DNA of 64,000 bases from Chitinophagaceae bacterium (lineage in GTDB: Bacteria; Bacteroidota; Bacteroidia; Chitinophagales; Chitinophagaceae). The notes under the pieces were generated by a model that searched no databases, was not told the origin of the DNA, and saw only the letters and a list, made by a program, of their open reading frames with translations. Where the stretch lies: assembly GCA_027486835.1 (NCBI GenBank), contig JAIXOJ010000031.1, forward strand, positions 23,937-87,936, in the 5' to 3' direction. Each line of letters opens with the position of its first letter. The first letter of the stretch is position 1. Shown here piece by piece: positions 3,001 through 54,580 of the stretch. The translations under genes and the position numbers were made by a program.

Positions 3001-4940
3001 GCCGCAAACCAGTTGTTGCTGGTACGCAAACAGTTAAAGCACTTACTGTGAGTAGCGGTGTTACTTTAACCAATAGTGGAACAATAAACGTTACTGGCAA
3101 TTTGTCCAATAATGGTAGCATCTCTGGAACAACCATTTTAAGTGGTACTTCCCTTCAAACAGTTAGCGGTATCGGAACCGTGAGTAACTTAACAGTAAAT
3201 AATACTGCCGGAGCAACCGTTACCAGCGGCAGCAACAAAGTGAACATCACTGGAGTGTTAACACTTCAATTAGGTACGTTAACTACCAATGGTAATGTGG
3301 TGTTGAAATCTAGCAGCATAGCCAATAGTGCCTTAGTAGCCCCGGTTGGTGTAGGTGGTAATTCTGGAATCATCAGCGGTACGGTACAGGTAGAACGCTT
3401 CATTCCTAAAGGATACCGTGCTTGGAGAGACATGGCACCGAGCGTATTTAATGCAGGTAGCATTTTCAACAACTGGCAAGAAGGTGGTAGCTATGCAAAT
3501 ACTGGTTACGGTGTATTTATTACGGGTACCACAGCAGTTACTGCTTCTAATGGAGTGGATGCCACCACTGGTTTAGACCAAACAGTCAATAGCGTAAAAT
3601 CTGCCTATACATTTACAGGTGGCACTTGGAATGCGGTTACCAACACCAAGACTACCAACCTAAATCCTTTCTTAGGATACCGTTTATTGGTTCGTGGCGA
3701 TAGAAGCTACAATATGTACACCACACCAGTTTCCACAGTGGGAACAACAGGGGTGTTACTAATGGTCAATGCTACTGCACTCCGTGCAACAGGTAATTTA
3801 GTTACTGGCAATGTGGTGTTCGCCACCTCTGGTATCACCAACACAGTAGCAGGCGCTACTTACAATAATGCTTCATTCGGATTGAACAGCACTACTGCCA
3901 CTGGTTTTAGTTCAGTAGCCAACCCTTATGTAGCACCATTGGATTGGAAAAACATCTGGGATAACGGACGTGCCACTAACCTTACTGCTGCCTATTATTA
4001 CCTAGACCCAACTATTGGTTCTACAGGTGCTTATGTATCGTATAACGCCTTCTCTGATGCATCCAGCAATGGAGTTGCAGCCACTAGGTACATACAAGCC
4101 GGTCAGGCTTTCTTTGTAGAAAACACTAGCACTTCGCCTAGCTTAACTATAACAGAAGCCGATAAGGCAATGTCAGCTACCAAAACATCGGTGTTTGGCA
4201 ATGCTAGTCGCAGTCGTTTGGCTATTAACTTGATGAAAGCAGACGGAGCTGAAATCAAACAAATGGATGGTGCAACAGTAGTGTTTGATAAGGCGTTTAG
4301 TAATGGCATCAGTAAAGAAGATGCAAGAAAGATGACCAACCCTGGTGAAAATCTAGCCATCAGTCGTGATGGTCAGGCTTTAAGCATTGAAGGTCGTCAA
4401 CCAGCAACTGCTGATGAAAGATTGCCATTGGCCATGAGCCAATTGACCAGCAGCGATTATCAATTATCTATCGATGCTTCTGCCTATAAAACAGACAACC
4501 TTGATGTTTACTTGGTAGATGCTTTCACCAAAAGCGAAACTTTGTTGACCAATGCCATCAACAACATCAGCTTTAATGTAGATGCTTCCAACCAAGCCAC
4601 TTATGCTAACCGTTTCAGCGTAGTATTTAAAGCCGCTTCCAAAGCAGCTACCACAACCACGCCGATTGTTACTAGCGGCATGAGTGTTTACCCTAACCCA
4701 ATGGTAGGTAATAACCTCACTGTTCGTTTGGGAAGTGAAGTAGTTGCAGGAAAGTATGAGGTAAGCATTACTAACAGCCTTGGACAAACCGTAAGTAAAT
4801 CAATCATGCTCCATAGCGGCGTTAATTCCGCAAAAACCATCACAACAGCTAGCAAGCTAGCTGGAGGGGTGTATCAGGTAACTATTACATCTTCCACCAC
4901 CAACCAAGCTATAGCCACCACTAAGCTTGCCGTAGAATAA
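1..4940 (+). CDS. 5'-partial giant T9SS-secreted surface/adhesin-like protein (paralog 1) ending in a type-A Por/T9SS C-terminal sorting domain
   Basis: Frame 3 is open from the window edge (no stop from nt 3 to 312) through 4940. The product is rich in Thr/Gly/Asn/Ser beta-strand repeats. It shares a conserved module (VQVERFIPKGYRAW...NNWQEGG...YLVDAF) and a C-terminal VYPNPMVGNNLTVRL...YQVTI tail with the other three giant ORFs. Confidence 0.85.
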   Translation, partial: TAGISASAASGPIQTTTRTYNAATTTFSYEGIAAQSTGDGLASSVYGLTINNSTGLTLTNDVTTTGKFTLTSGTLTSTSANLLTIGSAATITGGSSASFVSGPMQHTVTGTTASAKLFPIGKSTAYSPVTLTATQASATSTTYKAEAFLGGSTPSHTLPAELSVVSANRYYSLSSSANNLSAASITLGYDANDLGSSILTTTTSANMRIARGSGTWVDLGGVGTAPTTGSITSTNNFTSLGDFAIANAIVLGTPPNLTAAVGATVSANYNITFTDDLAWRNAITSVVYGSTTLTPSTDYTIASGVITIKPNGAAGAALRTAGSITITVNATNYDDGVVTQTVGAGTATKLVIKTQPTAPASNGAALATQPAVFIQDAYNNTTTSTAAVTIAVGAGGWTIGGTTTINAVNGTATFSGITAGSATAVTGATASITSGSLTGLTTSSFNIPSPVTYYWVGGTGGGAWNTAVWSLTKGGSAVTAFTPAATDVFVFDGSNIGAGATGTITTTGGASTTTVGRIVLQNNANVIFNQTSARTFNISGMIGTDLDIPFGSTLTTSGSNTTLIALAAGATASISGTLNIGQAGTGTHQLTALSTGAIVVNSTGQVVANVTSSVSIFGTATDGSVIFTNGSKLTSTKAGDPFGGVGKNVVVFQSGSTYELQNNNPLNFSGHTFSNFIYNSSSSSVVTTPGSAGIIFDNITISQRSFTISETGTATVIKGNVTVATGATLIFAPASAATVTFAGTAAQTITNSGTLTIPALQTIAINNSFGVSLGSAITSSGAVVLTTGKVNLGAFNLTVASITGGSSTAYVNASGTGRLAISAITSAATRVFPVGTATSYTPLTVSSLSVTSTVSVGVASTITNAVVDATKVLNLQWAVLASPTATATLSYQFNTANKASGFSFSTACDLGVYTSAYAVSIFTTPASSIPTGSNPFTLTKSGLSIPASGTNLYVIGNLNAIAVPTTTTWTGFASTDWNNYLNWTAHSPVSGVDASIPSTSRKPVVAGTQTVKALTVSSGVTLTNSGTINVTGNLSNNGSISGTTILSGTSLQTVSGIGTVSNLTVNNTAGATVTSGSNKVNITGVLTLQLGTLTTNGNVVLKSSSIANSALVAPVGVGGNSGIISGTVQVERFIPKGYRAWRDMAPSVFNAGSIFNNWQEGGSYANTGYGVFITGTTAVTASNGVDATTGLDQTVNSVKSAYTFTGGTWNAVTNTKTTNLNPFLGYRLLVRGDRSYNMYTTPVSTVGTTGVLLMVNATALRATGNLVTGNVVFATSGITNTVAGATYNNASFGLNSTTATGFSSVANPYVAPLDWKNIWDNGRATNLTAAYYYLDPTIGSTGAYVSYNAFSDASSNGVAATRYIQAGQAFFVENTSTSPSLTITEADKAMSATKTSVFGNASRSRLAINLMKADGAEIKQMDGATVVFDKAFSNGISKEDARKMTNPGENLAISRDGQALSIEGRQPATADERLPLAMSQLTSSDYQLSIDASAYKTDNLDVYLVDAFTKSETLLTNAINNISFNVDASNQATYANRFSVVFKAASKAATTTTPIVTSGMSVYPNPMVGNNLTVRLGSEVVAGKYEVSITNSLGQTVSKSIMLHSGVNSAKTITTASKLAGGVYQVTITSSTTNQAIATTKLAVE

Positions 4941-9426: not shown

Positions 9427-12400
9427 ATGAAAGTGATGTTTACACGCTTGCTCGTATTGTTGTGTTGCCTCTATGCCACTAATGTTGTTGCCCAATATTA
9501 TCCTGGTGGAATGTCCAAGAGCAAAATAAATCTATGGTTCGATGCATCAGACACGGCCACGTTAACCAAGTCTTCTGGTCTAATTACGTCATGGAAGGAT
9601 AAAAGCAACAACTTATCTGCTGCACAAGCGACTACTTCTAGACAGCCAATATTAACCAGCCTCAACGGAAAAAATATTGTGGAGTTTAACGGCACTCAGG
9701 GGCTAGACATTGCTTACAATTCATTGCTAGTGCCAAACCAAGGATTTAACGTTGCACAAGTCTTGTATGTGTATGCAGATGCACCAACGAATGTGACCGA
9801 TTTTAGATCTGGTACTTTTTCCACCAATTCGGGCAACACGGGTTCGCCCTACATTGGCGTTCGGTATGTGGTAGTAGATGGTAAATACGAAATTGCTGCC
9901 AACAGAAACAATACAGGATACTATTACAGCCAATACGAAGACCTAAGAGGTAAATGGGCAATGGCCTCCACGACCTGTAATGCGGCAAACAGTAAGGTTA
10001 ATTTTTACTATAACGGTGCAGGTACCTTAAGTAGTACCGTTAGTGGTTATGTGAATAACAATACTGGGGGGGCTATTGGCAATCGGTTTGGTAATTATTC
10101 AGCCATTCATTGGGGGGTAAGCGAAACAGTTTTGGCGGGTTATGATGCCAAAAATTCTGGAAGAAGAATCATCGATTTATACCTAGCTACCAAATGGGGT
10201 ATGCGGGATACGTTGCAAAATAGTTATGGTAACCTATATGCACCTTTAGACGGAGCTTTTACCAATAATCTAGTAGGGATAGGTATAGAAAGTGCAGGCG
10301 ATACCACCAACGAAACTGGTTCCAACAATGGCTTGGGGTTGCAAAACATCAACGGGGTAACTGGATTTCTAAGAAAAGAAGGTAGTTATGTCCTTGCAGC
10401 CGACAATGGGTTATCAGGCAATGTAACAATGGCAACTGGCATTACTCGTTGGAACAGGAGTTGGTATGTGAACAAAACCGATGTATCGGGCTACGGGGGC
10501 TTGCTAAAAATAGTATTTGATTTCACTAGTTATGGTCAGGCCAATGCACTAGATACTGTCAACAACAACTACTACCTTTTATACAATCCAACCAATGGTT
10601 ATTACAATAGCGATAGCAATTATCTAGTCACAGTAAAATCTTATCAACAAGTGGCTGGTACCAAACAACTGGCTTTTTTACTTGATGGTATTGATGTAAA
10701 AAATGGTTTTTATACCCTTGTTTATGCGCCTAAAAATGGTAGTATGGCTGCATTGCCCAATTTGGCAAGTTTTGTAGCAGCCAGTGTTTCTGTGAGTCCT
10801 TCCCCCACTATTCCATCGGTATATTCTGGAAACACCTTCAACTATGTGCAAATAGATTCATCGGCCATCACTTATCCTGTAGCTTACTATAAAATTTATG
10901 CATCCGTTAATGGGGGTACATTAACAGCAATTGATAGCACCAATGGTACTACCAACTACTATGGTCATTATAATTTAACGAATGGCAACACGTATCTGTA
11001 CAAAATAAGTGCGGTATATGCCCCAGGCAAAGAGAGTGCATTATCTGATTCTGCCATTGGCATACCCAATAACAATACGCCACAATGGCTCATTCTGCCT
11101 CAATACAGTGAATCGGGCAAAATATTTATGGCGGCAGCCGCTCCATTGTCGGGTCTTCCGCTAAAATTCTCTTTTGAAAATGTTGCTGGTGGTGGACACT
11201 CTAGCGGTTTTCAACGGGCTTCCCAGTTTACAGATTCGCTGCTAACTGATGGAAATACCTATAGCTATCGATACCGATTTATGGACACCGTAATCGGTGC
11301 TGCAAGTTTGTCTGGATGGTCCACAACCCAATCGGTACTAATGACCGATTCTATACAAGGAGGTTATACCTATAATATGACCTACCTAGACCCCACCACA
11401 CCCTTTGCTCCTTATGGCATTGGGCCAGCTAATATTCTGCCTTCTAATCAAGATGTAACAGGGTTGCGTTTTATCAAGCATGTGCCGGCTGTAGGGCAGC
11501 ATCCCCGTATATTCTGTAGCCCATCCGATTCCACAGAAATTAGGTATCGATTAAAAAATACATCTGCAGGAGTGGCCGCTTCTCGGTTTATTCATGCCTA
11601 CACAACCTTGCTTCAATTGGGTAATTCCGGCTATAACAGAAATACTTTCTATAGTAGAGATACCTTGGGTAATATCTATTTCAGCAATGTAGGGGCTACA
11701 GACAGCAAAGCACTGTATGATTCATTGGCATTAGGAGACATTGGCGTTACTAATAATTATTCGAACTTATGGGGAGGTAATTATGCAAAGATGGCCTACA
11801 ACTTTTCCCATGAAGCCATGGAATGTTGGATTTATCGTAACCAAATAGATACTGTAACCAATACTTCCTACGCTACCCGTGCTAAGAAACTAGCTACCGC
11901 ACTCACGGTTTGGGCCAAGAAAGTGGTTGCAGATAATACCATCGTACCCAATTTAAACATGAGCAATTTTGGAGGATTACACAATGCCATTGCTTATGAT
12001 TTCTTATACGATCAAATGACCAAAAATCAACAAGATACCATTCGCATGGCCATCTTAAAAACTTTGCCTGACAGCAGCAAAGAGCATGGATGTTGGGCAC
12101 CTTCTTACACCACCACTACCAACTGGGCAACTTTTGGCGGTGAAATAACTTGCAATATTGCCGTTGAAGGCGAGCCTGGGTATTCTGCTAAAGATTCAGG
12201 ATTATTAAGAGGATGGGTAAAAACCGTTTGGAATTTCTTGACGTATGGTGTTTACCCAACTGGTAATATGTATGAAGGCATTGGTAAAAATCGATTGAAT
12301 GAATTTTTGCTAATAGCGATGGCCAAAAGAGGATATAGTGTATTGGGGCATCCCAATATCAGGGCATATGCTCAAAAGTATTTACCAGCAGTGGTGCAAC

Positions 12401-15400
12401 CCTTTGGTTATTCACTTATAGGGACAGACATACTAGGCGGGACAGGAACTGGCAGCCCATCTACCGGAGGATGGAAACATACTTTCATGGATATAGGTGG
12501 CTTGAAATGGGCTTTTCCAGCAGATAGCTCAGTAGATTTTATTTGGAAAAATGTAATGCAGCGTCAATATGCAAACCAACCAGGAATTACTAATAATTAC
12601 TACGCATACAATAATACGACTTGTGCTGATAATTATGGGGCTGGTTTCAATACCCATATTCCAGGTTTGATATTTGCCTCAAACTATTTCAGTGCACCTG
12701 TAACAAGCTATGCCAAAGCGGCATTAGGTAACAACAAGTTCTATTTTGATTCATTGGGTGGGCAGGCAGTTATGCGAAGTGGTTTCGACTCAACTTCTTC
12801 TATGGTATTTTTTGCTTGTAGGCAAGACGGAGGAGGGCATACCTACGCCAATAAGAATGAAATATTATACAGTGCATTAGGTAGAATTTGGTTTCCTAGG
12901 GTTACAACCATAGCCAGTAACCAAACCGTTTTTGATGTAGTATCTACTACTCAAGTGTCCAATGCTGTTTTGGTTAACGATTTGGGTGTTTCTCCCGATA
13001 CAGGTACCTCTTGGACATCTGGAATAGTGCCAGGCAAAATGGTGCATTTCCAAAAAACCGATAGTATCATGACCATTGCTGGTGATGCTACCAAAGCCTA
13101 TAGTTACCAATGGAACAGTGGTCCATTTGGTGGGTATCTGTATGACAATCCTTTGTTGAGTCCGCCTTCAGTTACGAAAGTCACCGATTCGTGGAATAAG
13201 TATAGATACAGCCCTTACTATTCCTTTGATAACACGGTAATGTATAACAGGCTTTCCTTTACAGACAATTTTACCCCACCATATTATTATGTACGCACCG
13301 TGGAGCGGCCATATTTCAATGGATTGATGAAAAAGGTGTTTAGAACCGTTTCGCTTATTCAGGCAACCAATCCATATGTAATTGTAGCGGATGACGTGCA
13401 AAAGGACAATGCTTCTAGCAACTATAAATGGATTACCCCTATTGCACCAGACTTAAGTGTTGACACCACTTATGCAAATCTGTCCAACAATAATTATCAA
13501 TTTGATGTGGTGTTAAAAGAACCTACGGCTACAGGCAACCGAAGATTGTTGATTCGACTACTCAATGCCAACGGAGCAATAAGCAGCACCATTGCTGGTA
13601 CCATCGACTCATCTACCTACTCCGCCACAGGTTTGCGGAGGTTTAAAATGGAAGCAAATGCTGTTGACCCGCAATTTAAAGTGCTGTTGTTTCCTTTTCA
13701 AAAAGGCGATGCACTTCCAGTAACCACTTGGAGTGCCGATAAATCCAAAGTATATGTAACCAATGCGGGGGTAACAAATACCATTTCATTTAGCTTAGAC
13801 AGCGCTGGACGAACCAATATTTTGCTCAATTCCTCCGATACCGGAATCAATTGGACAGGTGCAGTAAGCAGGGCATGGCACAATACAGGTAATTGGGCAA
13901 CAGGAAAAATACCCACTGCTACAGATAATGTGGTAATTCCTTCTGTTGGCATTACCAATATGCCTTTAGTAAGTACAGCCATTGCGTATGCCAATAAAAT
14001 ATCAATACAATCTGGGGCTACATTAACCATTGATTCTGTCTTACAACTATCTGGCGATTTGACTTTATTGGGCACTATCAATGGAACAGGTACGCTGAAA
14101 ACAACCAGCAATTCTACCAACCCCATACCCGCTGGTCAAACTTGGAATGTAAATATTGAGTACAACAAAACCACGGGTCTGCAAACCTTGGTGGGAGGCA
14201 CTTATAAAGGGCTTTCTGTGAATGCTACCACTACGGGTAGCACCTTTACCGCAGCCGCCAACTTAGTAGTCAATGGGATATTGAATATAGCCAACAATAA
14301 TACCCTAAACATGGGGGCTTACACGCTGTTGGGTAGCTTCACTAATGCTACTGGAAAGGGAATTTTGCTTACCCAAAGTACCTCAAACCCTTGTTTGGCT
14401 AGTAATGTAACTTGGGCTGGGCAGGTTCAATTCAATTCATTTAGTGGACCGCAATATGTTCCGGTTGGTACTTATCAAAACCTAAACATTAACACTACTT
14501 CATTTGGAACCATCACCGCCACTGGCAATATTTCGGTTGTAGATACACTGAAATTGGCCACCAAAGCAACACTTGATTTAGGAACGAACTTATTGGGCGG
14601 AACTTTGAAAATAGTGAGTGGAAATGGTACTTTAAAAACGGCGAATACTACTTCAACCGGTGCATTACCGCCTAATGCTACTTGGGCAGGCAATGTAGTA
14701 TACTATAGTAGCAGCACACAAACAGTTGCACCTGGAACCTATGTAAGTCTCGACCTTTCAGGAGGTAACAATGGGGCAAGAATTTTAGGCGGCAGTAATT
14801 ATCCCTCAGCTACCATCAACTTAACCGGTTCTTTGGTTGCTACCACGGGTACTGTTACTCCACTGCTAACAACCGTTATTTTCAAAGGCAACCAACAAAC
14901 GGTGCCAGCTATGCAGTTTTATAACCTAGACTTGACAGGTGGTTTTGCTACTCAATTTGTAAATGCTCCAGTGTATGTAAGTAATGTATTTACGCCAGCT
15001 TCTATCACGGACGCAGGAGGAATAGGTACGATTGTTTTCAATGGAACAGGTGCGCAAAACGTTCCTTCTTTTGGATATAATGGATTAACGCTTACAAATG
15101 CTAGAACAGGTAATATATCTATTCCTAGTACTATAACCCTTACAGGTAATTTATCCCTTGCTGGTTTGTCGTTTACTAGTGGAAGTTTGTCCTTTTCTGG
15201 TAATACCATTAACATGAGCGGAACTGCAGCACAAACAATTGATGGAAATGCAGCGATTCCTTATAACAACATCAATATTACCAATACGGCTGCAAATATT
15301 ACCGCAACCACTGACATTAGTATTAATGGGGCATTAGTAATTAATTCAGGTGCAACGCTTGATATGGGCACAGGTCAGTTGTTAGGAACAAACATCACGA

Positions 15401-18400
15401 ACAATGGTACAATTCGCACACAAAACACCAGCACCAATCCAATACCTAGTGGAATTAGTTACGGTGGAACAGTTCGCTATAATAGTACAACTGGCACTCA
15501 AAATATACTGGCTACTACGTATAATAATCTTGATATTTCTGGAGGTACTACTGCGGGTAGAATTTTACCCAATGGAGGAATAATTACCATCACTGGAAAT
15601 TATACGCCCAATACCGCAGGAACGTTAACTACCACAGGTTCTACAGTTTTATTTACTGGTAGTAATGCCCAAAGCATTGCCTCTGCCACCAGTTTTGCGA
15701 ATCTGCAATTGAATAAAACCAATACTGCTACAGCTTTAACCTTTAATGGAACTGTTTCAGTAAATGGCTTGCTATCTCTCACAAGGGGAAGAATTACAAC
15801 CTCCATCTCAGCTGGGCTTATACTTGCAAGTTCAGCTACCATTAGTGGAGGAAGTAGTACAGCTTATATAGATGGGCCACTGACTAGAACTGTTGTAGTA
15901 GGTAGTAACGTATATCCTTACCCAATAGGTATTTACAACGCCTCAACTGATTATTTCTTGCCCGATACCCTCACAGCAGCATCTGCGGCAGGTAATGTTA
16001 CCATCGCCGCTTTCAATGGAAGTACAGGTGGTACACCTGATGGTACTACCGTAACTAGCATCAGCACTAATGAATATTGGCGAGTTAGTTCAAGTGTGGC
16101 AAATACTATTGGTATTACTATTACACCTATAACACTTGGTAGCAACAGAGTGATTGCTCAGGGTAGTAGTAGTAGCACACCTGCTGCCACTTATAGTTTT
16201 AAAGGTGGTGCATTCACTAACACAAGTATTAACACTACTGGATTATCACTAACTGCCAATACCAATGCCTTCCTAGTTGCTGCCGTAGCCACCCTTACAG
16301 CACCTACCATTACAGCAGTTAGTTCTTGTGTACCATTAATTGCTGCGAATAATTTCTTTGCAAGGGATACTATAAATATAACAGGTACAGGCTTTGAAAG
16401 CGGAAGCGTGGTAACAGTAGGCGGTCAACCTGCCACTGTAGTATCTAATGCTGGTGTACCAACTACCCTTCGGGTTTTGGTTAGTGGTTCTGCTGCAACC
16501 AATATCATCACCGTGAGTAATGGTGGAGGCACCACTACTAGTGCAATAGCTACTTTAATTCCTGGTTATGCCACCAGAAACGATGGTTCTTGGAATACAG
16601 GAAGCACCTGGTTAGGTGGTGCTGTGCCTCCCGTAAACAATGCAGTTACAATCAGTAATACGCTTACGCTTGCAAGCAGTGTAGTTAATATTGGCAACAT
16701 GACGATTAACAGTAGCGCTTCAGTAAGTGCAGGAGGTATTGGTATGACCTTTAACGCGGGCATTACCATCACCAATAACGGCGCTTTTAGCTCTAGCAAT
16801 ACAGTTACTTTTAATGGTGTTGCTACTATTTCGGGTATTAATGCCATCACTTTTAATAACGTAACTACGGCGAGTGCATTAACATTTACAACTGCACCAA
16901 CTATCAATGGAAATTTAACCCTCAATAGTGGAGCATCCATTTTAGGCAATAGTCCTACTTACGGAGGAAGTGCTACGCTAGCTTACAATACGGGTGCTAC
17001 TACCCAAGTAGGTGTTGAATGGGCTGCTGGTTTAGCAAGCGGTGCAGGTGTACCACAAAACGTAACCATCGGTGCTGCTGTAGGCAATACAGTAGTTAGT
17101 TTCGGAACATCAAATACTTATCGACAGCTTAATGGCGCGCTCACTATCAGTGCAGCTACTACGGGAAATGGATTGATTTTGAGTACCGTAAGTGGGGGAG
17201 ATTTAAGAGTAGCAGGTGCAAGTGGTATTTCCGCCACACAAACTGCCACCAACGCTTATGGAAATGTGCCAGGTGGATTGGTTTGCAATGGCAGAATGGT
17301 CTTTTTCGTAGCTGCATCTGGAGCTCAATCACTTACAGGGCCTGCAACTGGTAATCCTTTGTCGCTAGATTACCTAACCATTGGTACAAATAGTTCTTCA
17401 ACCAACTCTATTAATATCGGTAGTGATTTGGCTATCACAGCTATTAATGGTGGAGCCCCTATTATTCAAACCAATTTACCTACAAGTTCAGTATCTGGTG
17501 GCACTTATATCAATGCCAACAATTCAGCGGTGTCCACTAGGAATGTAACCTTGGGTACTGTTGGGCAAACTTGTACGGGTACGGCCTATATAAGAGGGGG
17601 TGGAAGCAATCCAGCAAGCGTAACAATTAATGGAAACGGTACAGGAACTTTAAACTTAAATATCGACTTCGGCGGAGGCAACTCCAATGTAAATACCCTT
17701 ACTATTAGTAACGCCAATGTGGCTTTAGCCGCAGCCTTAACCGTGAAAGGTGCATTCAATCTTAATAGTGGAAGTTTCGATGTAGGTGCATTTAGTTTTT
17801 CGCCTAATAGCACATCCACTATCGGCGGAACGCTTAATTTATCATCCGTTACTGGCACAAAAACTTTCACCGGATTGGTTACTATCAACAGTGGCGGAAT
17901 TTGGAATAATACTGGAAATTCAGCAGTTACTTTCCAAGGGGGCATTACCAACAATGGCACATTCAATGCTGGCACTGGTACGCAAACCTTTAATACCAAT
18001 AACCAAGCATTAGCGGGTACAATCACTTGTGCTAATCTAACTGTTACCAGTCCTACTGTGCTTACCAATAATGGTACACTCACCGTTTCTACTGCACTTT
18101 CTGGTACGGGTACACTAACACAAGGGGTGTCTGATGTGCTCAACTTAAATGGTACTTATACGATAACCACTATAAATGCAACAGCTACAGACAATACCGT
18201 CAATTTCAATGGTGCTGCTGCGCAAACCATACCTGCCAATAGTTACTACCATTTGGGTATTGGTGGCACAAGAAACAATAATACCAATGTTACGCTTGCC
18301 AGCGGCACCATCAACATTGCCGGTAATTATACCCGTACTGCTGTGTTTAGTGGTACGGGCAAGTTGGATGCTGCAACTGGTACCCTTGTTTTTAACGGTA

Positions 18401-21285
18401 CGGTTGACCAAACCATCACAGCTAGCACTGCCGAAACCTTCAATAACCTCACCATCAACAATACCAAATCGGGTGGGGGAGTGGTTAATCTTGCCGTGAG
18501 TAACCTTACTTTATCTGGAACAACCAATGCACTCACCCTTACTAGCGGAAAGCTATCCTTGGGGTCAAGCAACCTTACCCTCAATAGTACTGGAGTCATT
18601 AATAGTGTGTCTGCTACAAATTATATTGTTGCAAGCGGCTCTGGTAGATTGGTAAGAAAAGCAGTAACCAGTGCAACCATTTTCCCAATAGGCACCGCTA
18701 CTAGTTATACCCCAATTACGGTAACGAACAACACAGCCTCAGATATAAGCGTGGGTGTAAGCCCTACCATCACCAATGCAGTTTCTGATTACTCCAAAAT
18801 TGTCAATTTACAATGGTCTGTTGCTTCGGCTTCTGCTACAACTTCTAGTACTTTATTGTATCAATTCAATACGGCTGACCAAGCTGCTTCTTTCTTAGTG
18901 GGCAATAGTTGTGAATTGGGCTATTATTCCAATGCTTATTCTGTAAGTACACTTGGAATACCTACTTCTCTTGGGTCAGGTGCTTATACACTCAATAAAT
19001 CTTCTTTAGCATTTGCTGCTGGAACTACTTATTTGTCTGTATTGGGTAATGTGAATGCTATTTCAAACAATTGCACAATTGGTACTTATGTGGGTGCAAA
19101 TGGGGGAGATGCCAATGCTGCTGGGAACTGGTGCGGAGGTGTGCCTACTGCGGCTACCAATATTATTATTGCTACCAATGCCCCTAGGTTAACAGCCAAC
19201 TTGTCAGTAAATAACATCACAAACAATGCAGGTATTCAATTGAACGGCTTTGCGCTCACCGTTAATGGAAACCTAATTGGTGCTGGTACCATAACTGGTT
19301 CGCCTACGTCTAGTTTGGTGGTGAAGGGTACAGGAACCCTTTTGTTGGATCAGTCCACCAATGGTACTACCAATGTGTTGAGTAATTTGACTATTAATAG
19401 CAGTGGAACAGTTACCCTAGGTAATGCGCTTCAAATAAAAAATGCAGTGTTTCCTACGGCTGGTGTTTTAGCTACTGGGGGTAATCTTACCCTATTGTCA
19501 AGTGCAACGGGTACTGCTCGCTTTGCTCAGGGCAATGTTAATGGTGGTTATGTTACAGGTAATATTACCACACAAGCATTCATTCCTGCAAAAGCGGCTA
19601 GAAAATATAGTTTCATTGGAAGCCCTGTTAGCCAATTGATAAGCAATGCTTGGCAGCAGCAAGTATATATTACTGGTGCTGGTTCGGGCGGTACTACCTG
19701 TGGTACTGGTGGTACACAATATAACAGTAATGGATTCGACAAAACCCTGACTAATACACCAAGTATGTTTACCTATAATGTAGCTCCTGTAAATGGTACA
19801 CGATGGGTATCCATTCCAAGCACCAATGCTACCAACCTCGCTCCGGGTAAAGGCTATCGCATCAATATTAGAGGTGACAGAAACCAAGGCACATGTAACG
19901 ACCAATTAAATAGCAACTCTCCTGCTGCGCCTACCAGTGTGGTGTTGAGTGCTACGGGTGCATTAACACAAGGCAACTTTGCAGTAACCCTTAACGATAC
20001 AGCCCAACATTTATACACTTTATTGGCAAACTCTTACCCCAGTCAAATTAGCTTTTCGGCTTTTAAAGCGGACAATTCCGCCATCAATAATAAAATGTGG
20101 ACGTATAGCCCATTGGGTAATGGCAATTACACCACCTATTCTAATGGCATCATTACCAATGCGGTAAGTGGTTACACCGATACCAATGGCGATTACATTG
20201 CCATTGCACAAGCGTTTTTTGTGGAGGCCAACAAAACAGGTACTACGGTTACTTTCCGCGAAACACATAAAGTGGACTCTGCTATCCCCAACTTTAATTA
20301 TTTCGGCACCGCCAATGCACACTTGTTACGCCTTGGCATGTACGCAACCAATGATTCGTTACTCGATGAAACGGCAGTGCGATTCAACCAATACGGTGGG
20401 GCAGATTATCAGCAAGCATGGGATGCCATTTCTTTTAGTGGAGGCAACCAATCCCTTGCAAGCCTCAAGGGGGCTACTGCTTTGGCCATTGCAACACATA
20501 GCGACACGCTACAGATAGACACCATCCATCTAGCAGTTCGCAGCAGCACTTTAGGTAATTTCCAATTGAAATTAAAAGATTGGAGTGGATTTGATGCCGC
20601 TACTTCCTTATTGCTCAAAGACAATTTCTTAGGCAATGTCCATAATCTCTTGGTGAATCCAGTGTATGATTTTACCGTAACCTCCGATACGGCTAGCAGT
20701 GGAAAACGACGTTTTGAGTTATGGTTTAATAAAACGGGCACATTACCTGTTCGTTTTGTAGCGGTTAACGGCAAGCGGGAAACTGGCAAGGCCATCATAC
20801 ATTGGAAAGTTGCCGACGCTGCTCGTCTTAGCCAATTTGTACTAGAGAAAAGGCAGGAGTCTGGTCAATTTTTTCCCATCACTACTGTATTAGCCACCCA
20901 AGCCACTGACTATGATGCAGTTGATTTGCAACCAAATAATGGGCTAGATCAGTACCGCATTAAAGCCTTGGATTTGGATAGGAAAGCCTATTACAGCCCC
21001 ATCATACAATTAACTGGCCGCGACAATGTGCCTAGCTTTAAGATTTACCCAACAGTAGTTGCTAGTCAGCAGTTACAATTGCACATTAATGACCAAGCTT
21101 CTGGCGAGGCCATGATAGATATGGTAGATGTTTTAGGCAAAATAGTATGGCGTAAGGCTGTTCGTTACACCGTTGGTGCAACCACTCAGGTGTTATCATT
21201 ACCACAGGTAGCTACAGGTACTTATCAGGTACGAGTTACTCAACAAGGCAGCCTTCGCTCCACCACCTCAATTGTGGTGCAATAA
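9427..21285 (+). CDS. Giant (3952 aa) T9SS-secreted surface protein (paralog 2). Order: signal peptide, LamG/concanavalin-like N-terminal region, heparinase II/III-like (alginate-lyase superfamily) region, long beta-helical-like Thr/Asn/Gly repeats, IPT/TIG-like segment, shared pre-CTD module, type-A T9SS CTD
   Basis: One uninterrupted 11.86-kb ORF. The N-terminus MKVMFTRLLVLLCCLYATNVVAQ is a signal peptide. An HPRIF... segment parallels HPRVLV... of the separate heparinase-like ORF at 49300. GGGHTYANKNEILYSALGRIWF resembles the HxHxD..G..l core of that family. The C-terminal FKIYPTVVASQQLQLHINDQASG...YQVRVTQQGSLRSTTSIVVQ is a CTD. Confidence 0.85.
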   Translation: MKVMFTRLLVLLCCLYATNVVAQYYPGGMSKSKINLWFDASDTATLTKSSGLITSWKDKSNNLSAAQATTSRQPILTSLNGKNIVEFNGTQGLDIAYNSLLVPNQGFNVAQVLYVYADAPTNVTDFRSGTFSTNSGNTGSPYIGVRYVVVDGKYEIAANRNNTGYYYSQYEDLRGKWAMASTTCNAANSKVNFYYNGAGTLSSTVSGYVNNNTGGAIGNRFGNYSAIHWGVSETVLAGYDAKNSGRRIIDLYLATKWGMRDTLQNSYGNLYAPLDGAFTNNLVGIGIESAGDTTNETGSNNGLGLQNINGVTGFLRKEGSYVLAADNGLSGNVTMATGITRWNRSWYVNKTDVSGYGGLLKIVFDFTSYGQANALDTVNNNYYLLYNPTNGYYNSDSNYLVTVKSYQQVAGTKQLAFLLDGIDVKNGFYTLVYAPKNGSMAALPNLASFVAASVSVSPSPTIPSVYSGNTFNYVQIDSSAITYPVAYYKIYASVNGGTLTAIDSTNGTTNYYGHYNLTNGNTYLYKISAVYAPGKESALSDSAIGIPNNNTPQWLILPQYSESGKIFMAAAAPLSGLPLKFSFENVAGGGHSSGFQRASQFTDSLLTDGNTYSYRYRFMDTVIGAASLSGWSTTQSVLMTDSIQGGYTYNMTYLDPTTPFAPYGIGPANILPSNQDVTGLRFIKHVPAVGQHPRIFCSPSDSTEIRYRLKNTSAGVAASRFIHAYTTLLQLGNSGYNRNTFYSRDTLGNIYFSNVGATDSKALYDSLALGDIGVTNNYSNLWGGNYAKMAYNFSHEAMECWIYRNQIDTVTNTSYATRAKKLATALTVWAKKVVADNTIVPNLNMSNFGGLHNAIAYDFLYDQMTKNQQDTIRMAILKTLPDSSKEHGCWAPSYTTTTNWATFGGEITCNIAVEGEPGYSAKDSGLLRGWVKTVWNFLTYGVYPTGNMYEGIGKNRLNEFLLIAMAKRGYSVLGHPNIRAYAQKYLPAVVQPFGYSLIGTDILGGTGTGSPSTGGWKHTFMDIGGLKWAFPADSSVDFIWKNVMQRQYANQPGITNNYYAYNNTTCADNYGAGFNTHIPGLIFASNYFSAPVTSYAKAALGNNKFYFDSLGGQAVMRSGFDSTSSMVFFACRQDGGGHTYANKNEILYSALGRIWFPRVTTIASNQTVFDVVSTTQVSNAVLVNDLGVSPDTGTSWTSGIVPGKMVHFQKTDSIMTIAGDATKAYSYQWNSGPFGGYLYDNPLLSPPSVTKVTDSWNKYRYSPYYSFDNTVMYNRLSFTDNFTPPYYYVRTVERPYFNGLMKKVFRTVSLIQATNPYVIVADDVQKDNASSNYKWITPIAPDLSVDTTYANLSNNNYQFDVVLKEPTATGNRRLLIRLLNANGAISSTIAGTIDSSTYSATGLRRFKMEANAVDPQFKVLLFPFQKGDALPVTTWSADKSKVYVTNAGVTNTISFSLDSAGRTNILLNSSDTGINWTGAVSRAWHNTGNWATGKIPTATDNVVIPSVGITNMPLVSTAIAYANKISIQSGATLTIDSVLQLSGDLTLLGTINGTGTLKTTSNSTNPIPAGQTWNVNIEYNKTTGLQTLVGGTYKGLSVNATTTGSTFTAAANLVVNGILNIANNNTLNMGAYTLLGSFTNATGKGILLTQSTSNPCLASNVTWAGQVQFNSFSGPQYVPVGTYQNLNINTTSFGTITATGNISVVDTLKLATKATLDLGTNLLGGTLKIVSGNGTLKTANTTSTGALPPNATWAGNVVYYSSSTQTVAPGTYVSLDLSGGNNGARILGGSNYPSATINLTGSLVATTGTVTPLLTTVIFKGNQQTVPAMQFYNLDLTGGFATQFVNAPVYVSNVFTPASITDAGGIGTIVFNGTGAQNVPSFGYNGLTLTNARTGNISIPSTITLTGNLSLAGLSFTSGSLSFSGNTINMSGTAAQTIDGNAAIPYNNINITNTAANITATTDISINGALVINSGATLDMGTGQLLGTNITNNGTIRTQNTSTNPIPSGISYGGTVRYNSTTGTQNILATTYNNLDISGGTTAGRILPNGGIITITGNYTPNTAGTLTTTGSTVLFTGSNAQSIASATSFANLQLNKTNTATALTFNGTVSVNGLLSLTRGRITTSISAGLILASSATISGGSSTAYIDGPLTRTVVVGSNVYPYPIGIYNASTDYFLPDTLTAASAAGNVTIAAFNGSTGGTPDGTTVTSISTNEYWRVSSSVANTIGITITPITLGSNRVIAQGSSSSTPAATYSFKGGAFTNTSINTTGLSLTANTNAFLVAAVATLTAPTITAVSSCVPLIAANNFFARDTINITGTGFESGSVVTVGGQPATVVSNAGVPTTLRVLVSGSAATNIITVSNGGGTTTSAIATLIPGYATRNDGSWNTGSTWLGGAVPPVNNAVTISNTLTLASSVVNIGNMTINSSASVSAGGIGMTFNAGITITNNGAFSSSNTVTFNGVATISGINAITFNNVTTASALTFTTAPTINGNLTLNSGASILGNSPTYGGSATLAYNTGATTQVGVEWAAGLASGAGVPQNVTIGAAVGNTVVSFGTSNTYRQLNGALTISAATTGNGLILSTVSGGDLRVAGASGISATQTATNAYGNVPGGLVCNGRMVFFVAASGAQSLTGPATGNPLSLDYLTIGTNSSSTNSINIGSDLAITAINGGAPIIQTNLPTSSVSGGTYINANNSAVSTRNVTLGTVGQTCTGTAYIRGGGSNPASVTINGNGTGTLNLNIDFGGGNSNVNTLTISNANVALAAALTVKGAFNLNSGSFDVGAFSFSPNSTSTIGGTLNLSSVTGTKTFTGLVTINSGGIWNNTGNSAVTFQGGITNNGTFNAGTGTQTFNTNNQALAGTITCANLTVTSPTVLTNNGTLTVSTALSGTGTLTQGVSDVLNLNGTYTITTINATATDNTVNFNGAAAQTIPANSYYHLGIGGTRNNNTNVTLASGTINIAGNYTRTAVFSGTGKLDAATGTLVFNGTVDQTITASTAETFNNLTINNTKSGGGVVNLAVSNLTLSGTTNALTLTSGKLSLGSSNLTLNSTGVINSVSATNYIVASGSGRLVRKAVTSATIFPIGTATSYTPITVTNNTASDISVGVSPTITNAVSDYSKIVNLQWSVASASATTSSTLLYQFNTADQAASFLVGNSCELGYYSNAYSVSTLGIPTSLGSGAYTLNKSSLAFAAGTTYLSVLGNVNAISNNCTIGTYVGANGGDANAAGNWCGGVPTAATNIIIATNAPRLTANLSVNNITNNAGIQLNGFALTVNGNLIGAGTITGSPTSSLVVKGTGTLLLDQSTNGTTNVLSNLTINSSGTVTLGNALQIKNAVFPTAGVLATGGNLTLLSSATGTARFAQGNVNGGYVTGNITTQAFIPAKAARKYSFIGSPVSQLISNAWQQQVYITGAGSGGTTCGTGGTQYNSNGFDKTLTNTPSMFTYNVAPVNGTRWVSIPSTNATNLAPGKGYRINIRGDRNQGTCNDQLNSNSPAAPTSVVLSATGALTQGNFAVTLNDTAQHLYTLLANSYPSQISFSAFKADNSAINNKMWTYSPLGNGNYTTYSNGIITNAVSGYTDTNGDYIAIAQAFFVEANKTGTTVTFRETHKVDSAIPNFNYFGTANAHLLRLGMYATNDSLLDETAVRFNQYGGADYQQAWDAISFSGGNQSLASLKGATALAIATHSDTLQIDTIHLAVRSSTLGNFQLKLKDWSGFDAATSLLLKDNFLGNVHNLLVNPVYDFTVTSDTASSGKRRFELWFNKTGTLPVRFVAVNGKRETGKAIIHWKVADAARLSQFVLEKRQESGQFFPITTVLATQATDYDAVDLQPNNGLDQYRIKALDLDRKAYYSPIIQLTGRDNVPSFKIYPTVVASQQLQLHINDQASGEAMIDMVDVLGKIVWRKAVRYTVGATTQVLSLPQVATGTYQVRVTQQGSLRSTTSIVVQ

Positions 21286-21532: not shown

Positions 21533-21787
21533 ATGACAACAAAAGGAATCATTGCAACAGTAGTAATTGCCAGTATGATAGTGGCACAGCCATTAATGGC
21601 ACAGTTTAGTGGTTCTGGGCCATCCACTTTAGCTCCCCCCATACCGCCCCCCCCACCACCAGTACCAGAAGTTCCTTTCGATGGTGGAATGAGCATTGTA
21701 TTACTTGCCAGTGGGATAGGCTATGCTTCAAAAAAATTAAAACAGCTTAAAGGCACACCAAACCAAGATACCAGTTTCATCGGCTAA
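21533..21787 (+). CDS. Mini-protein A: signal peptide + Pro-rich linker + conserved C-terminal PFDGG–TM helix–KK motif (putative sorting/anchor signal)
   Basis: 84 aa: MTTKGIIATVVIASMIVAQPLMAQ | FSGSGPSTLAPPIPPPPPPVPEVP | FDGGMSIVLLASGIGYASKKLKQLK. It lies 247 bp downstream of giant gene 2. The gene at 55126 shows near-identity in the C-terminal 22 residues. Confidence 0.6.
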   Translation: MTTKGIIATVVIASMIVAQPLMAQFSGSGPSTLAPPIPPPPPPVPEVPFDGGMSIVLLASGIGYASKKLKQLKGTPNQDTSFIG

Positions 21788-21792
21788 ATAAA

Positions 21793-21835
21793 TGGGCTAA
21801 TGCCATGCACATACAATGTGCATGGCATTAGCCCA
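21793..21835 (+). terminator. Perfect 19-bp-stem hairpin (gggctaatgccatgcacat / acaa / atgtgcatggcattagccc) directly after the mini-protein A stop
   Basis: Exact inverted repeat read from the sequence. No strong T-run follows, so it may be a terminator or an RNA-stability element. Confidence 0.5.
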
Positions 21836-22126: not shown

Positions 22127-22684
22127 TTAATTGATAAAGTCTTCCACATTGGGCATTTTCTCGAGTTGGTTATTTAATTTCTCTTCCATTTGCGAAAAGG
22201 TTTCATTTCCATTTAAAACTTTGGAAGCATATTCGTACGGATATAGGGATAATACAACTCCATTTTTGTTATATTTTAAGGTCATACCTCTTAATGGATA
22301 TTCTGGTTTTTCATCTTTATATAGTTTAAAACCATACTTTTTAATCAGAAAGTCGCTAAATGAAATAGCTAAAAACAAAGTTGCCTGTGCCTCGCCAAGT
22401 TGATAAGCTTTACAATACAATACAAATCCAAAACCTGCTTGGTCTGTCTGGTCAAGATTATTTGGGTGATTGATTGGGTCTTCCATTTTTCTTGTAATCT
22501 TATTGGCAATAAAATAACCTTCAACCATTTTTAAGCAACCATCAAGCATTTCAGCATCAATATTATCCTCTCTATATCTTTTTTCAAAATATTCGGTTGT
22601 GTGGATTCCATCAATGTTTAAACCTTCCTTTTCCGTTTCTTCTTCTTTCTTAGTTGAAAAGAATAGTTTTCTAAAAAAACTCAT
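22127..22684 (-). CDS. Hypothetical protein (185 aa)
   Basis: Clean ORF convergent with the mini-protein gene. No recognisable motifs. Confidence 0.45.
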   Translation of the reverse strand: MSFFRKLFFSTKKEEETEKEGLNIDGIHTTEYFEKRYREDNIDAEMLDGCLKMVEGYFIANKITRKMEDPINHPNNLDQTDQAGFGFVLYCKAYQLGEAQATLFLAISFSDFLIKKYGFKLYKDEKPEYPLRGMTLKYNKNGVVLSLYPYEYASKVLNGNETFSQMEEKLNNQLEKMPNVEDFIN

Positions 22685-22839: not shown

Positions 22840-23721
22840 CTACCAATTCAATGCCTCTGGAATTTGATCAAACAATTTTTTCCAATTACGGTCTTCTGTC
22901 TTGTATAAGACCGTTTTTATAGCATACCAAACTGAAGGGTGTTGATAATTTTGGATATAAGCTCTATAGCTTTCTTTAATTTCATTTTTTATATGCTCTA
23001 GTGGTCGTGTAAAATCGAAACGTCCTTCGTTTGGTCGTAGTACTTCTTGAAGTTCTTCTATTGTCTTTGAGTTTGATATTCTCACAATTCTTTCCAAGCA
23101 ATCATAGTAATGATTTGCAGCACTTTTTCTTGCTGCTACTAACACATCCCTTTCATTCAATTCTAAAATACGAAGTGTATAATTGGCTTTATTGAAACTT
23201 TTTTTGTCTTCTTCGGTGGAAATAATTATTTCGAATCGATGGGTGTAGGGGTTCAACACCATAAAATCATTCGGATTTTCTGTCCTTGGATTGATGAATG
23301 CAATTTCATTATGCGGAGGTTTATTCCCACGTTCCGTTTTTGTTACGCTATTGTCTGTAGCGTTGATAACATAGCATTTGTCTAGTTTAAATCCTGAATT
23401 ACAGGTCTTGCAAGCCAAGAGATAATTATCCCATACAAAAGCATGTTCAGGAAAGAATGATTTTGGATAAATATGTTCTATATCCCCTGCCTCATTTTGC
23501 TCACAATAATTACAAACACCCGTAAAAACGCACAAGTCAAATAATTCGCTTTTGATCGTTTCAAATGCCGCTTTTGTTAGTCCTGAACTTTTTGCATTCC
23601 AAAGGGCTTTTGCTTTTGCAGCCTGCTGTTCAAAGGTGGTTTCAGCATTTATTTGAGCTTGCAAATCAGCTAAGGTTTTCTGCGTATTGGCATCTAAGGT
23701 TTTAGTTAGCAATCGAATCAT
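22840..23721 (-). CDS. HNH-nuclease-motif protein, PtuB-like partner of the upstream ATPase (Septu-like)
   Basis: Carries CNYCEQNEAGDIEHIYPKSFFPEHAFVWDNYLLACKTCNSGF, a CxxC...H...P...N...CxxCN HNH pattern. Its start overlaps the ATPase stop by 20 bp. Confidence 0.65.
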   Translation of the reverse strand: MIRLLTKTLDANTQKTLADLQAQINAETTFEQQAAKAKALWNAKSSGLTKAAFETIKSELFDLCVFTGVCNYCEQNEAGDIEHIYPKSFFPEHAFVWDNYLLACKTCNSGFKLDKCYVINATDNSVTKTERGNKPPHNEIAFINPRTENPNDFMVLNPYTHRFEIIISTEEDKKSFNKANYTLRILELNERDVLVAARKSAANHYYDCLERIVRISNSKTIEELQEVLRPNEGRFDFTRPLEHIKNEIKESYRAYIQNYQHPSVWYAIKTVLYKTEDRNWKKLFDQIPEALNW

Positions 23722-25036
23722 CGGTACTTAGTATTTGTAGTAACTCATGCCTTTCGTTTTCTTCCTCGTTAGTGATTTTGCCAAGTGCCGATAACACGTT
23801 TAGTCTTCCCAAACGTTCCAGTTTTTCAGCAGATTTAGCAGACCGCACTGCCTCTTTGCCAAATAACTCCGTACCGTAAGCATCTAGTATGTTGCCATAA
23901 ATGAGCTTTTCTTTTTCAGTTCCCGTAATTTCATTGATAACTACCGCCCCGTTTGCAGCTTCCAATCGCCAGATACTCCCCTTATCACAAGCACGGCATA
24001 TCAAAGGGCTATGTGTTGTTACGATAAATTGTAAATCGGGAAAATGTTGTGTAAACCAACCACCTATTTTGGTTTGCCAGCTTGGATGCAAGTGGGCATC
24101 TACCTCATCTATCAAAACAACCCCAGGCAGTTTTATTTGATTGGTAGCTGCTAAATCTTTAAACACCGGTTCATGACCAAAAGTAATAATCAGCTGACGA
24201 ATCAATTCAAAAGTCAAACTAAGAATAGAACGAAAACCATCACTTAATTGCGTAACAGGAAAATTATTACCAGATGCATCTTTAAAAATGGGCAGTTCAT
24301 CCACTTTTTCAAACCTTACCCCATTTGGCAGCAATCCACTTTTATTTACAAAATGTTTTATGTTATCTAAAATAATACCCGATTCAGATTCCTCTAGGCC
24401 ATATTCCTTTTCCTTTAGCCGTTTATAATCAAGGCTTTTTATCCAAGCTAGCACTTCGGTTAATGCAGCACCTTCATCAAAAACGCTTAAGTGCGCGCCA
24501 ACTTTAGGTGACGAAAGATACACTTTGTCTAATTCTGGATTTCCTCCAGTAAATCTTCTAAAGGAACCAAAGCCTGCCGAGAACCATCCTTTGCCAGTAC
24601 CCCAGTTGTAATTATTTTCTTTATCTGGGTGTTTTATAGATTTCAAATTTGCATCCCCAATTTCAAAATTATAATTATCACGTAGTATTACTTTTTTGTC
24701 AGTATCAATAAAAAGAATCGCATTGCAAATAAGATCTAACTCTTCTATATTTGTTTTGCTTTTACCTGTATTTTCATCGATTTCTTTATCAGTAGTAATA
24801 AAAACACATGTACTCCCAAACGCTTCCCCCTTTCTTAACCATTCATTCCAATCAGCACGGATAGCATGAGCTTCAATAGGACCAATCAAGGCCAATGAAA
24901 CTGCTTTTATGAAAGTAGATTTACCAGAACCATTGTCTCCAATCAATACATTCCATCCCGCATAATGGGGATGAAAGTCGATTGTAAGGGCTTCAATTAA
25001 TCCAATATTTAAAAGCTTTACTCTATCTATATACAT
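23702..25036 (-). CDS. ABC/SMC-like ATPase of the AAA_15/AAA_21 (OLD/RecF-like) family, PtuA-like
   Basis: Has Walker A GDNGSGKST, ABC signature LSDGFRSILSL, Walker B VVLIDEVDAHLHP and H-loop VTTHSP. 444 aa, immediately upstream of the HNH gene. Confidence 0.7.
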   Translation of the reverse strand: MYIDRVKLLNIGLIEALTIDFHPHYAGWNVLIGDNGSGKSTFIKAVSLALIGPIEAHAIRADWNEWLRKGEAFGSTCVFITTDKEIDENTGKSKTNIEELDLICNAILFIDTDKKVILRDNYNFEIGDANLKSIKHPDKENNYNWGTGKGWFSAGFGSFRRFTGGNPELDKVYLSSPKVGAHLSVFDEGAALTEVLAWIKSLDYKRLKEKEYGLEESESGIILDNIKHFVNKSGLLPNGVRFEKVDELPIFKDASGNNFPVTQLSDGFRSILSLTFELIRQLIITFGHEPVFKDLAATNQIKLPGVVLIDEVDAHLHPSWQTKIGGWFTQHFPDLQFIVTTHSPLICRACDKGSIWRLEAANGAVVINEITGTEKEKLIYGNILDAYGTELFGKEAVRSAKSAEKLERLGRLNVLSALGKITNEEENERHELLQILSTDDSIAN

Positions 25037-46579: not shown

Positions 46580-46750
46580 TGACGGCAACCAAACGAAGCC
46601 TCCGCGAGCCTCTCGTCAACTGACGGCAGCCAAACGGAGCCTCCGCGAGCCTCTCGTCAACTGACGGCAACCAAACGGAGCCTCCGCGAGCCTCTCGTCA
46701 ACTGACGGCAATCAAACGGAGTCTCCGCGACCCTCTCGTCAACTGACGGC
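46580..46750. repeat. Tandem array of 4.2 copies of a 41-bp unit (tgacggcaaccaaacggagcctccgcgagcctctcgtcaac)
   Basis: Read directly from the sequence. It lies immediately 5' (on the coding strand) of the pseudogene. Confidence 0.9.
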
Positions 46751-54391: not shown

Positions 54392-54580
54392 CTATTTCTT
54401 TTTGTTTTTGTACAGTTTGTTCACTCCGTAAGAAGCACCCGCTGCCAGCAACAAAGAAATACCACCATCAATTGGAGCAGCACCACCACCGCCAGAACCT
54501 GGAGGGGTTGCATGAGCTACTGTTGCGGCCAAGAACAACACAACTGTCATCGTAATCATTTGAACCAAATTCTTCTTCAT
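54392..54580 (-). CDS. Mini-protein C: signal peptide + Gly-rich linker + IDGG–TM helix–KNKKK
   Basis: 62 aa: MKKNLVQMITMTVVLFLAATVAHA | TPPGSGGGGAAP | IDGGISLLLAAGASYGVNKLYKNKKK. Same architecture as 21533 and 55126. Confidence 0.5.
   Translation of the reverse strand: MKKNLVQMITMTVVLFLAATVAHATPPGSGGGGAAPIDGGISLLLAAGASYGVNKLYKNKKK

Follow-up and report, generated by a model that had tools for sequence, protein, structure and literature searches.

C-terminal sorting signals made of a short motif, a hydrophobic helix, and a basic tail are known from several systems that bear on the subject of this report: three very small genes ("minis") in a 64,000-nucleotide stretch of a Chitinophagaceae genome (hereafter, the window), two of which lie behind large genes that encode type IX secretion system (T9SS) cargo. 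In the PEP-CTERM/XrtA (EpsH) system, which also pairs a signal peptide with a three-part tail, the signal is read by a polytopic membrane cysteine transpeptidase, and many members are short and of low complexity; it differs in its PEP signature and in its setting, which is exopolysaccharide loci of Proteobacteria and other phyla and not T9SS cargo genes. The GlyGly-CTERM/rhombosortase and PGF-CTERM/archaeosortase A systems share the layout of the tail, but they rely on other enzyme families or motifs and their substrates carry real cargo domains. Rhombosortase is a precedent for removal of the tail coupled to attachment of a lipid-containing moiety, and archaeosortase A (ArtA) couples cutting of the tail to the same kind of attachment. 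For the Bacteroidota exosortases XrtF, XrtX, and XrtY, we know of no demonstrated function or substrate. Deletions of xrtF and of its associated gene in Flavobacterium johnsoniae (Fjoh_1448, Fjoh_1449) have been reported to cause the same surface-colonization, biofilm, and zorb defects as does loss of porU or porZ, two genes for T9SS attachment; what XrtF acts on is stated there to be unknown (PMC10936215).

On the secretion side, we found no cargo-adjacent partner described for T9SS type A cargo in the T9SS literature searched. The nearest parallel is provided by the PorP/SprF-like partners, outer-membrane proteins of ~300–400 aa. These shuttles are cargo-specific, are encoded directly after type B cargo, and are needed in step with it (PMC12618676, PMC9143113). 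The likeness to the minis, a partner gene immediately downstream of its cargo, is in gene position only: PorP/SprF-like proteins serve type B C-terminal sorting domains (CTDs), whereas the minis are 60–85 aa long and stand beside type A CTDs. The minis show no PorP/SprF homology, and no Pfam or NCBIfam match except PID_CTERM.

The three minis and their family

Translation of the window yields two proteins read as PFDGG-type PID-CTERM mini-preproteins, ORF1 (21533–21787, + strand, 84 aa) and ORF2 (55126–55365, − strand, 79 aa), and one read as a canonical PID-CTERM mini-preprotein, ORF3 (54392–54580, − strand, 62 aa). The translations bear out the common architecture that a first-pass annotation of this DNA had proposed for the three: a signal peptide, a disordered linker rich in Gly and Pro (Pro-rich in ORF1, Gly-rich in ORF2), and a single helix, with a C-terminus that runs (P)(F/I)DGG(M/I)S, ~14 small or hydrophobic residues, and a Lys-rich tail. 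As also proposed, no cargo domain separates the signal peptide from the tail, and the whole family is built likewise. ORF1 reads MTTKGIIATVVIASMIVAQPLMA|QFSGSGPSTLAPPIPPPPPPVPEVPFDGGMSIVLLASGIGYASKKLKQLKGTPNQDTSFIG, where the bar marks the signal-peptide cut; past their signal peptides, ORF2 reads QFGGGGTTPGGGGSGGGFPTTGGGPVIPFDGGMSLVLAASGIGYAAKKIKSIGSPKK and ORF3 reads TPPGSGGGGAAPIDGGISLLLAAGASYGVNKLYKNKKK. By sequence reading, with heuristic cleavage sites, the signal peptides would span about aa 1–23 of ORF1 (..PLMA|Q, continuing QF), aa 1–22 of ORF2 (..LSA|Q, continuing QF), and aa 1–24 of ORF3 (..AHA|T, continuing TP). The sorting domains lie at aa 47–71 of ORF1 (nt 21671–21745, + strand), aa 50–72 of ORF2 (nt 55150–55218, − strand), and aa 35–59 of ORF3 (nt 54404–54478, − strand). 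Each protein thus has the signal peptide, motif, hydrophobic helix, and extreme C-terminal basic cluster expected of a PID-CTERM protein, and the three-part sorting-signal layout that had been suspected in the tail is of the exosortase type. A six-frame motif scan found no fourth copy in the 64 kb.

NF046080 ("PID-CTERM protein-sorting domain") was the sole NCBIfam family that any of these ORFs matched at E-values up to 10; PEP-CTERM, GlyGly-CTERM, and LPXTG signal models gave no match in that search. ORF3 passes its cutoff of 26 bits with 48.8 bits over the full model (positions 1–25). A protein identical to ORF1 (P0002) and two close relatives of ORF2 (P0004 and P0005) have precomputed matches to Pfam PF28310 in a large protein database; this entry is labelled "PID_CTERM" in gene tables and is precomputed on most relatives. 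Further, profiles built from 58 PFDGG minis and from seven PID minis can be aligned from end to end (hhalign, 98.9% probability, E = 3.4e-17). Given the NF046080 scores, the PF28310 matches, and the profile alignment, we class ORF3 as a plain member of the named class PID-CTERM, and ORF1 and ORF2 as near-threshold relatives that belong to a PFDGG subfamily of it. The earlier statement that the motif belongs to no named CTERM class is therefore wrong, as the motif is that of PID-CTERM (NF046080 / PF28310). The same annotation had counted a match to an existing model of known function as a refutation; a sorting-domain model does exist, but its function is predicted only. The family is already catalogued and experimentally untouched, and the three ORFs are new members of it.

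NCBIfam also holds companion models for exosortase X (XrtX, NF046081) and for an "XrtX-associated membrane protein" (NF046082), and the consecutive accessions suggest that to the curators all three models formed a single system. With that system the minis share the sequence of motif, helix, and basic tail, a cargo-less size of 50–110 aa, and, in related genomes, the gene order mini, exosortase, small membrane protein. ORF1 and ORF2 differ from it in having PFDGGMS in place of PIDGG(I/L)S, linkers of ~30 instead of 15 aa, and NCBIfam scores under the cutoff. The PFDGG subfamily is moreover expanded, with a few Chitinophagaceae genomes having ~13–14 copies or more each, and the window is without an exosortase.

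Profile searches of the large protein database returned more than 280 PFDGG-type and more than 5,000 PID-type relatives. The best 120 matches to the PFDGG profile are 60–114 aa long, and the best 120 of the more than 5,000 matches to the PID profile are 52–125 aa long, all with PF28310. An exhaustive phmmer search of 1.84 billion representative proteins, run without a word filter and with the last 32 aa of ORF3 as query, gave 43 significant matches, all of 47–108 aa and all with the domain at the C-terminus. In ~0.8 Mb of related loci, no ORF longer than 130 aa carried the motif. Lack of cargo is the norm in the PID-CTERM family.

In 81 copies, five motif residues (P, D, G, G, and S) do not vary at all and two (F and M) hardly do, while codon entropy at positions 1, 2, and 3 is 0.66, 0.54, and 1.32 bits, with third positions reaching 1.9 bits. 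Because third codon positions vary while the motif residues do not, we conclude from the codon pattern that the mini genes are translated and under purifying selection. The number of relatives and this pattern show that the ORFs are no product of chance.

The part of the protein that would be exported was characterized in 374 members (177 PFD-type and 197 PID-type), using a heuristic rule for the cleavage site. The distance from the signal-peptidase site to the motif Asp has a median of 30 residues in the PFD type and of 15 (minimum 10) in the PID type. The composition of this stretch is 23%–27% Gly, 19%–23% Pro, and 10%–15% Asp, with 0.1%–0.3% Lys; any Lys at all is present in 14 of the 374 sequences. 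The predicted +1 residue is Gln in 174/177 PFD-type and 129/197 PID-type minis. It has been reported that in Bacteroidetes an N-terminal Gln exposed by cleavage is cyclized to pyroglutamate, the so-called Q-rule (PMC5837995, PMC10653852). The predicted +1 Gln is consistent with this rule, and a pyroglutamate N-terminus would accordingly be expected. On the other side of the membrane, the PID-type cytoplasmic tail has a median length of 14 aa.

Type A cargo genes and exosortase genes as neighbors

ORF1 begins 247 nt past the end of the gene for a 3952-aa T9SS type A cargo protein (9427–21285, + strand; CTD at ~nt 21043–21282), and ORF2 begins 12 nt past the stop of the gene for a 1233-aa type A cargo protein (55378–59079, − strand; Pfam matches to Ig_3 and PKD_3), so that the close spacing first described for these two pairs stands. 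A type A CTD was recognized by TIGR04183 at a cutoff of 23 bits. The 1233-aa protein (30.4 bits at aa 1153–1223) and a fragment with the last 149 aa of the 3952-aa protein (28.9 bits) are both above it; the whole 3952-aa protein scores 18.4 bits against the Pfam model Por_Secre_tail (PF18962), which is below threshold.

This arrangement recurs well beyond the window. In a first sample, one genome per species was scanned for PFDGGMS[LI]xL, giving 75 loci. About eleven genomes of Chitinophagaceae contributed to them, for the most part metagenome-assembled genomes (MAGs) from fresh water, besides Parasediminibacterium sp. JCM 36343 (loci L007, L054, and L063); in addition, a contig (L030) belongs to a MAG labelled uncultured Bacteroides sp. 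Some genomes have ~13–14 PFDGG mini copies. Most PFDGG minis for which upstream sequence is available lie 60–120 bp 3′ of a same-strand ORF of 800 to >3,300 aa (by our own ORF calls), and TIGR04183 is found in 43/46 of the upstream proteins from the Chitinophagaceae genomes. With a local CTD model, a CTD was detected in 46 of 50 immediate upstream ORFs; among the other ORFs of these loci, 28 of 345 had one (Fisher p about 1e-35, odds ratio 130). About 20 more minis are within 400 bp of an upstream contig end and few are at a downstream end, as would be seen if repetitive large genes had broken the assemblies there.

A second, independent sample was drawn by scanning metagenomes with the PID-type profile; its 80 loci, with three found earlier, make 83 loci with 89 minis. 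The upstream ORF is on the same strand in 73 cases and on the opposite strand in two, 13 minis are at contig ends, and the median gap is 49 bp. Here TIGR04183 is present in 57/62 distinct upstream C-termini. The layout is the same around three PID minis that are more distant and lie on long contigs. For approximately 90% of the minis, the gene directly before them encodes T9SS type A cargo, with the same strand and operon-like spacing; median gaps are about 50–80 bp in the two samples. The pairing is real and general: the nonrandom position after T9SS genes suggested by two cases in the first-pass annotation holds far beyond them, and homologues do recur behind genes with a T9SS CTD.

Little else recurs in these neighborhoods. 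All-against-all clustering of 603 neighboring ORFs revealed no conserved third gene beside the PFDGG minis other than syntenic orthologues. In most T9SS proteins of the lineage (66/74, local model) the CTD is directly preceded by a ~60-aa segment of the form "YYRIKA..G...YSN", seen at ~nt 20836–21040 in the 3952-aa protein of the window. This "YYRIK" domain was considered as a cause of the pairing and rejected, as T9SS proteins that lack a mini have it just as often.

The transcription layout of the window is in keeping with joint expression in at least one pair. A terminator-like hairpin with an 11-bp stem, a 15-nt loop, and a T-run (55094–55058, − strand) starts ~30 nt past the ORF2 stop, and no such hairpin is found between the 1233-aa gene and ORF2. 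It is plausible, as first proposed, that the two genes share a terminator, being carried on one transcript that ends at this hairpin. ORF1 is likely transcribed with or right after the 3952-aa gene, although the 247-nt gap could hold a promoter of its own. Six nucleotides past its stop lies a palindrome (21793–21835) with a perfect 20-bp stem and a 3-nt loop. It occurs once in the window, between the convergent ORF1 and a 185-aa ORF (22127–22684, − strand), and is probably a bidirectional terminator; its stem is unusually long for a terminator. ORF3 is a separate transcription unit; it lies 545 nt downstream of ORF2 and is followed by a hairpin and T-run of its own (54366–54329, − strand; recognized from the inverted repeat and the sequence).

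The other recurrent neighbor is an exosortase gene. In five loci (L004, L057, L072, L076, and L077) a PID-type mini overlaps by 1 nt the start of a gene for a 196–199-aa polytopic membrane protein, and the order is PID mini, 196–199-aa protein, 122–126-aa protein, ~1,200-aa T9SS protein, PFDGG mini. The 196–199-aa protein scores 37–55 bits against the exosortase signature TIGR04178 (cutoff 23). In L057 and L004, it fits XrtX best among the NCBIfam models (NF046081, 120–143 bits), with XrtF at 65–67 bits; for the exosortases of L072 and L076/L077, the identification rests on homology and on an Exosortase_EpsH match on record. In four metagenome loci (L085, L091, L122, and L125), an exosortase just after the mini scores 192–219 bits, above the XrtX cutoff of 170, and is itself followed by an NF046082-like protein; the L082 exosortase, at 169.7 bits, falls just short of the same cutoff. 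Of the 83 loci of the second sample, 15 contain an exosortase by a local exosortase model, and in 13 it comes directly after the mini. In other lineages of that sample, the mini is upstream of the exosortase by 2–90 bp. The order T9SS cargo, PID mini, exosortase is seen in 18 loci.

The first-pass annotation had put forward XrtF, a rhomboid, or a sortase as the partner enzyme; an XrtX-type exosortase fits better, with XrtF second best. As the second-closest exosortase model (65–100 bits), XrtF of F. johnsoniae also resembles the present system in having an adjacent small membrane partner. For the cargo beside mini–XrtX operons, the only common domain is Por_Secre_tail: one such protein also has PKD_6, GEVED, and MopE, another IgGFc_binding and Big_1, and three have no others. 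In two loci (L162, 7330–7971; L130, 7238–7837), the exosortase beside a PID mini is closest to XrtY (120–125 bits, cutoff 160), and one PID signal may serve two exosortase subfamilies, XrtX and XrtY. A more distant XrtX-like exosortase (L078, 9155–10999; 103 bits) has no adjacent mini; before it comes a 269-aa polytopic membrane protein, and after it come a 134-aa protein and a 1563-aa T9SS protein that is itself followed by no mini.

A proposed pathway and its alternatives

On balance we favor, with some reservation, a reading in which the minis are exosortase substrates that are co-expressed with type A cargo and deliver a short, acidic, Lys-poor peptide, probably for the surface attachment of that cargo. 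Transcription of a mini would take place together with, or just after, that of its T9SS type A cargo gene. Sec would export the product and signal peptidase I would cleave it, in most cases at A|Q, which by the Q-rule would leave a pyroglutamate N-terminus. The short C-terminal helix would then hold it in the inner membrane with the Lys-rich tail in the cytoplasm. An XrtX-type exosortase would read the P(I/F)DGG–helix–basic signal, cut, and join the new C-terminus of the peptide to an acceptor in the envelope, for example a lipid or glycan; this step is proposed because of family membership and of gene adjacency in other genomes. The delivered peptide would have 10–35 residues, be rich in Gly, Pro, and Asp, and be without Arg and almost without Lys. 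Finally, the processed peptide would act after CTD removal, in the surface attachment or retention of the neighboring cargo. This role, the most likely one, is also the weakest step, which we infer from the type A CTD being the only feature common to the partner proteins. The agreement of the F. johnsoniae xrtF phenotype with that of porU and porZ adds independent support for a link between an exosortase and T9SS attachment.

Several observations weigh against this pathway. ORF1 and ORF2 remain below the NF046080 cutoff of 26 bits, at 24.2 bits (model positions 1–24 of 25) and 17.4 bits, respectively, and the exosortases of the PFDGG lineage, at 120–143 bits, are below the XrtX cutoff of 170. 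A tblastn search of the 64 kb found no xrtX homologue in the window. The helix is more conserved, and the PID-type tail longer, than a disposable anchor needs, and both would suit an unprocessed membrane protein equally well. Two T9SS type A proteins of the window (312–4940 and 40659–45986, both + strand) have no mini downstream, which indicates that only a subset of type A cargo has one; one of the two contains a Shr-like heme-binding domain and the other NHL beta-propeller repeats. Our literature searches on PID-CTERM and XrtX found no paper, and so none showing cleavage of a PID-CTERM protein.

Some of these points lead to the alternative that the minis are not processed at all, but are stable single-pass micro-proteins of the inner membrane, serving as cargo-specific accessories (for example, by handing over large T9SS proteins at the translocon of the Sec system, or by controlling quality in the periplasm), with the exosortase an unrelated or regulatory neighbor. 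We regard this as unlikely, although it is the strongest of the alternatives. It would account for the strong conservation of the helix MSLMLAASGIGYA, for PID-type cytoplasmic tails with a median of 14 aa, for a window without xrtX, and for the detection of an exosortase by the local model in no more than 15/83 loci of the second sample; one mini per cargo gene has, in addition, the look of a stoichiometric partner, comparable to the SprF shuttle genes after type B cargo (PMC12618676). Yet the hallmark by which exosortase and archaeosortase substrates are known is a three-part tail at the very C-terminus, and curators modelled this one as a sorting domain together with XrtX. In several lineages there is a 1-nt overlap between a PID mini and the start codon of the exosortase, and elsewhere the mini lies 2–90 bp upstream; a periplasmic part of 10–15 residues is very short for a chaperone. 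A more elaborate possibility accepts processing and goes further: the exosortase (of XrtX/XrtF type) would attach the peptide by its C-terminus to a glycolipid of the envelope that reaches the surface, and PorU would link the N-terminus of this peptide with the cleaved C-terminus of the cargo, so that the mini would be a gene-encoded linker from cargo to cell surface and would join two sorting machines, the exosortase and the PorU/PorZ complex. The type A CTD, the sole feature common to the partners, is the processing target of PorU, which in Porphyromonas gingivalis uses the alpha-amine of Ser or Gly on a linking sugar (PMC7468200); deletion of xrtF phenocopies that of porU or porZ (PMC10936215), and gene pairing would keep the supply of anchors in step with cargo. 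We nevertheless hold such a linker to be improbable, because a pyroglutamate, predicted from the prevalence of +1 Gln in both types, would block the only amine (PMC5837995, PMC10653852), and the scarcity of Lys in the peptide leaves no other. There is, moreover, no known route to the cell surface.

Two further explanations can be given much less weight. That the minis give rise to signalling peptides, or to secreted or modified peptides akin to bacteriocins or RiPPs (ribosomally synthesized and post-translationally modified peptides), is suggested by their small size, Gly-richness, and many copies, but is highly improbable: they have Sec signal peptides and not leader peptides, neighbor clustering revealed no recurring modification enzymes or ABC exporters nearby, and the conserved part is the membrane tail and not the exported peptide. 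The chance that the ORFs are spurious frames in low-complexity intergenic DNA is very close to nil, as nothing except small size speaks for it, and the thousands of relatives, the purifying selection seen in codon-position entropy, and the fixed position and strand rule it out.

Whichever fate of the mini applies, the curated XrtX substrates are cargo-less minis that in ~90% of cases stand directly behind type A cargo genes, in many lineages, and this pairing provides a concrete, testable genetic link between exosortase and T9SS. Genes of 60–85 aa are easily overlooked by gene callers, and these mark a subset of T9SS cargo. We found no literature linking exosortase substrates to T9SS cargo genes, and the T9SS link of PID-CTERM minis appears to be unpublished; the curators' family descriptions, which were outside the search, may note it. 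If the gene-encoded linker to the cell surface were true, it would explain the purpose of Bacteroidota exosortases, and also how type A cargo is retained in those Bacteroidota without a described counterpart of the anionic-lipopolysaccharide (A-LPS) anchor. To our knowledge, no counterpart of this P. gingivalis anchor has been described for many Bacteroidota.

Other features of the window

Of two overlapping genes downstream of ORF1 (22840–25036, − strand), the one of 444 aa is similar to the PtuA ATPase (125 bits) and the one of 293 aa to the PtuB HNH nuclease (52 bits). The likeness is to Septu or retron-Ec78-type anti-phage defense, at scores far below the equivalog cutoffs, and Pfam matches to AAA_21, AAA_15, and HNH agree with it. 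A tandem repeat at 46580–46750 (41-bp unit, 4.2 copies, 95% identity) lies in a 1.2-kb gap after the gene for a 1775-aa T9SS protein; a CRISPR-like nature was rejected, as there are no spacers, and the repeat has no match in Rfam. Between the T9SS loci are genes for an M1-family peptidase (47208–49145, − strand) and for a heparinase II/III-like lyase (49300–51621, + strand), the latter scoring 445 bits against the HepB model, below its cutoff of 600.

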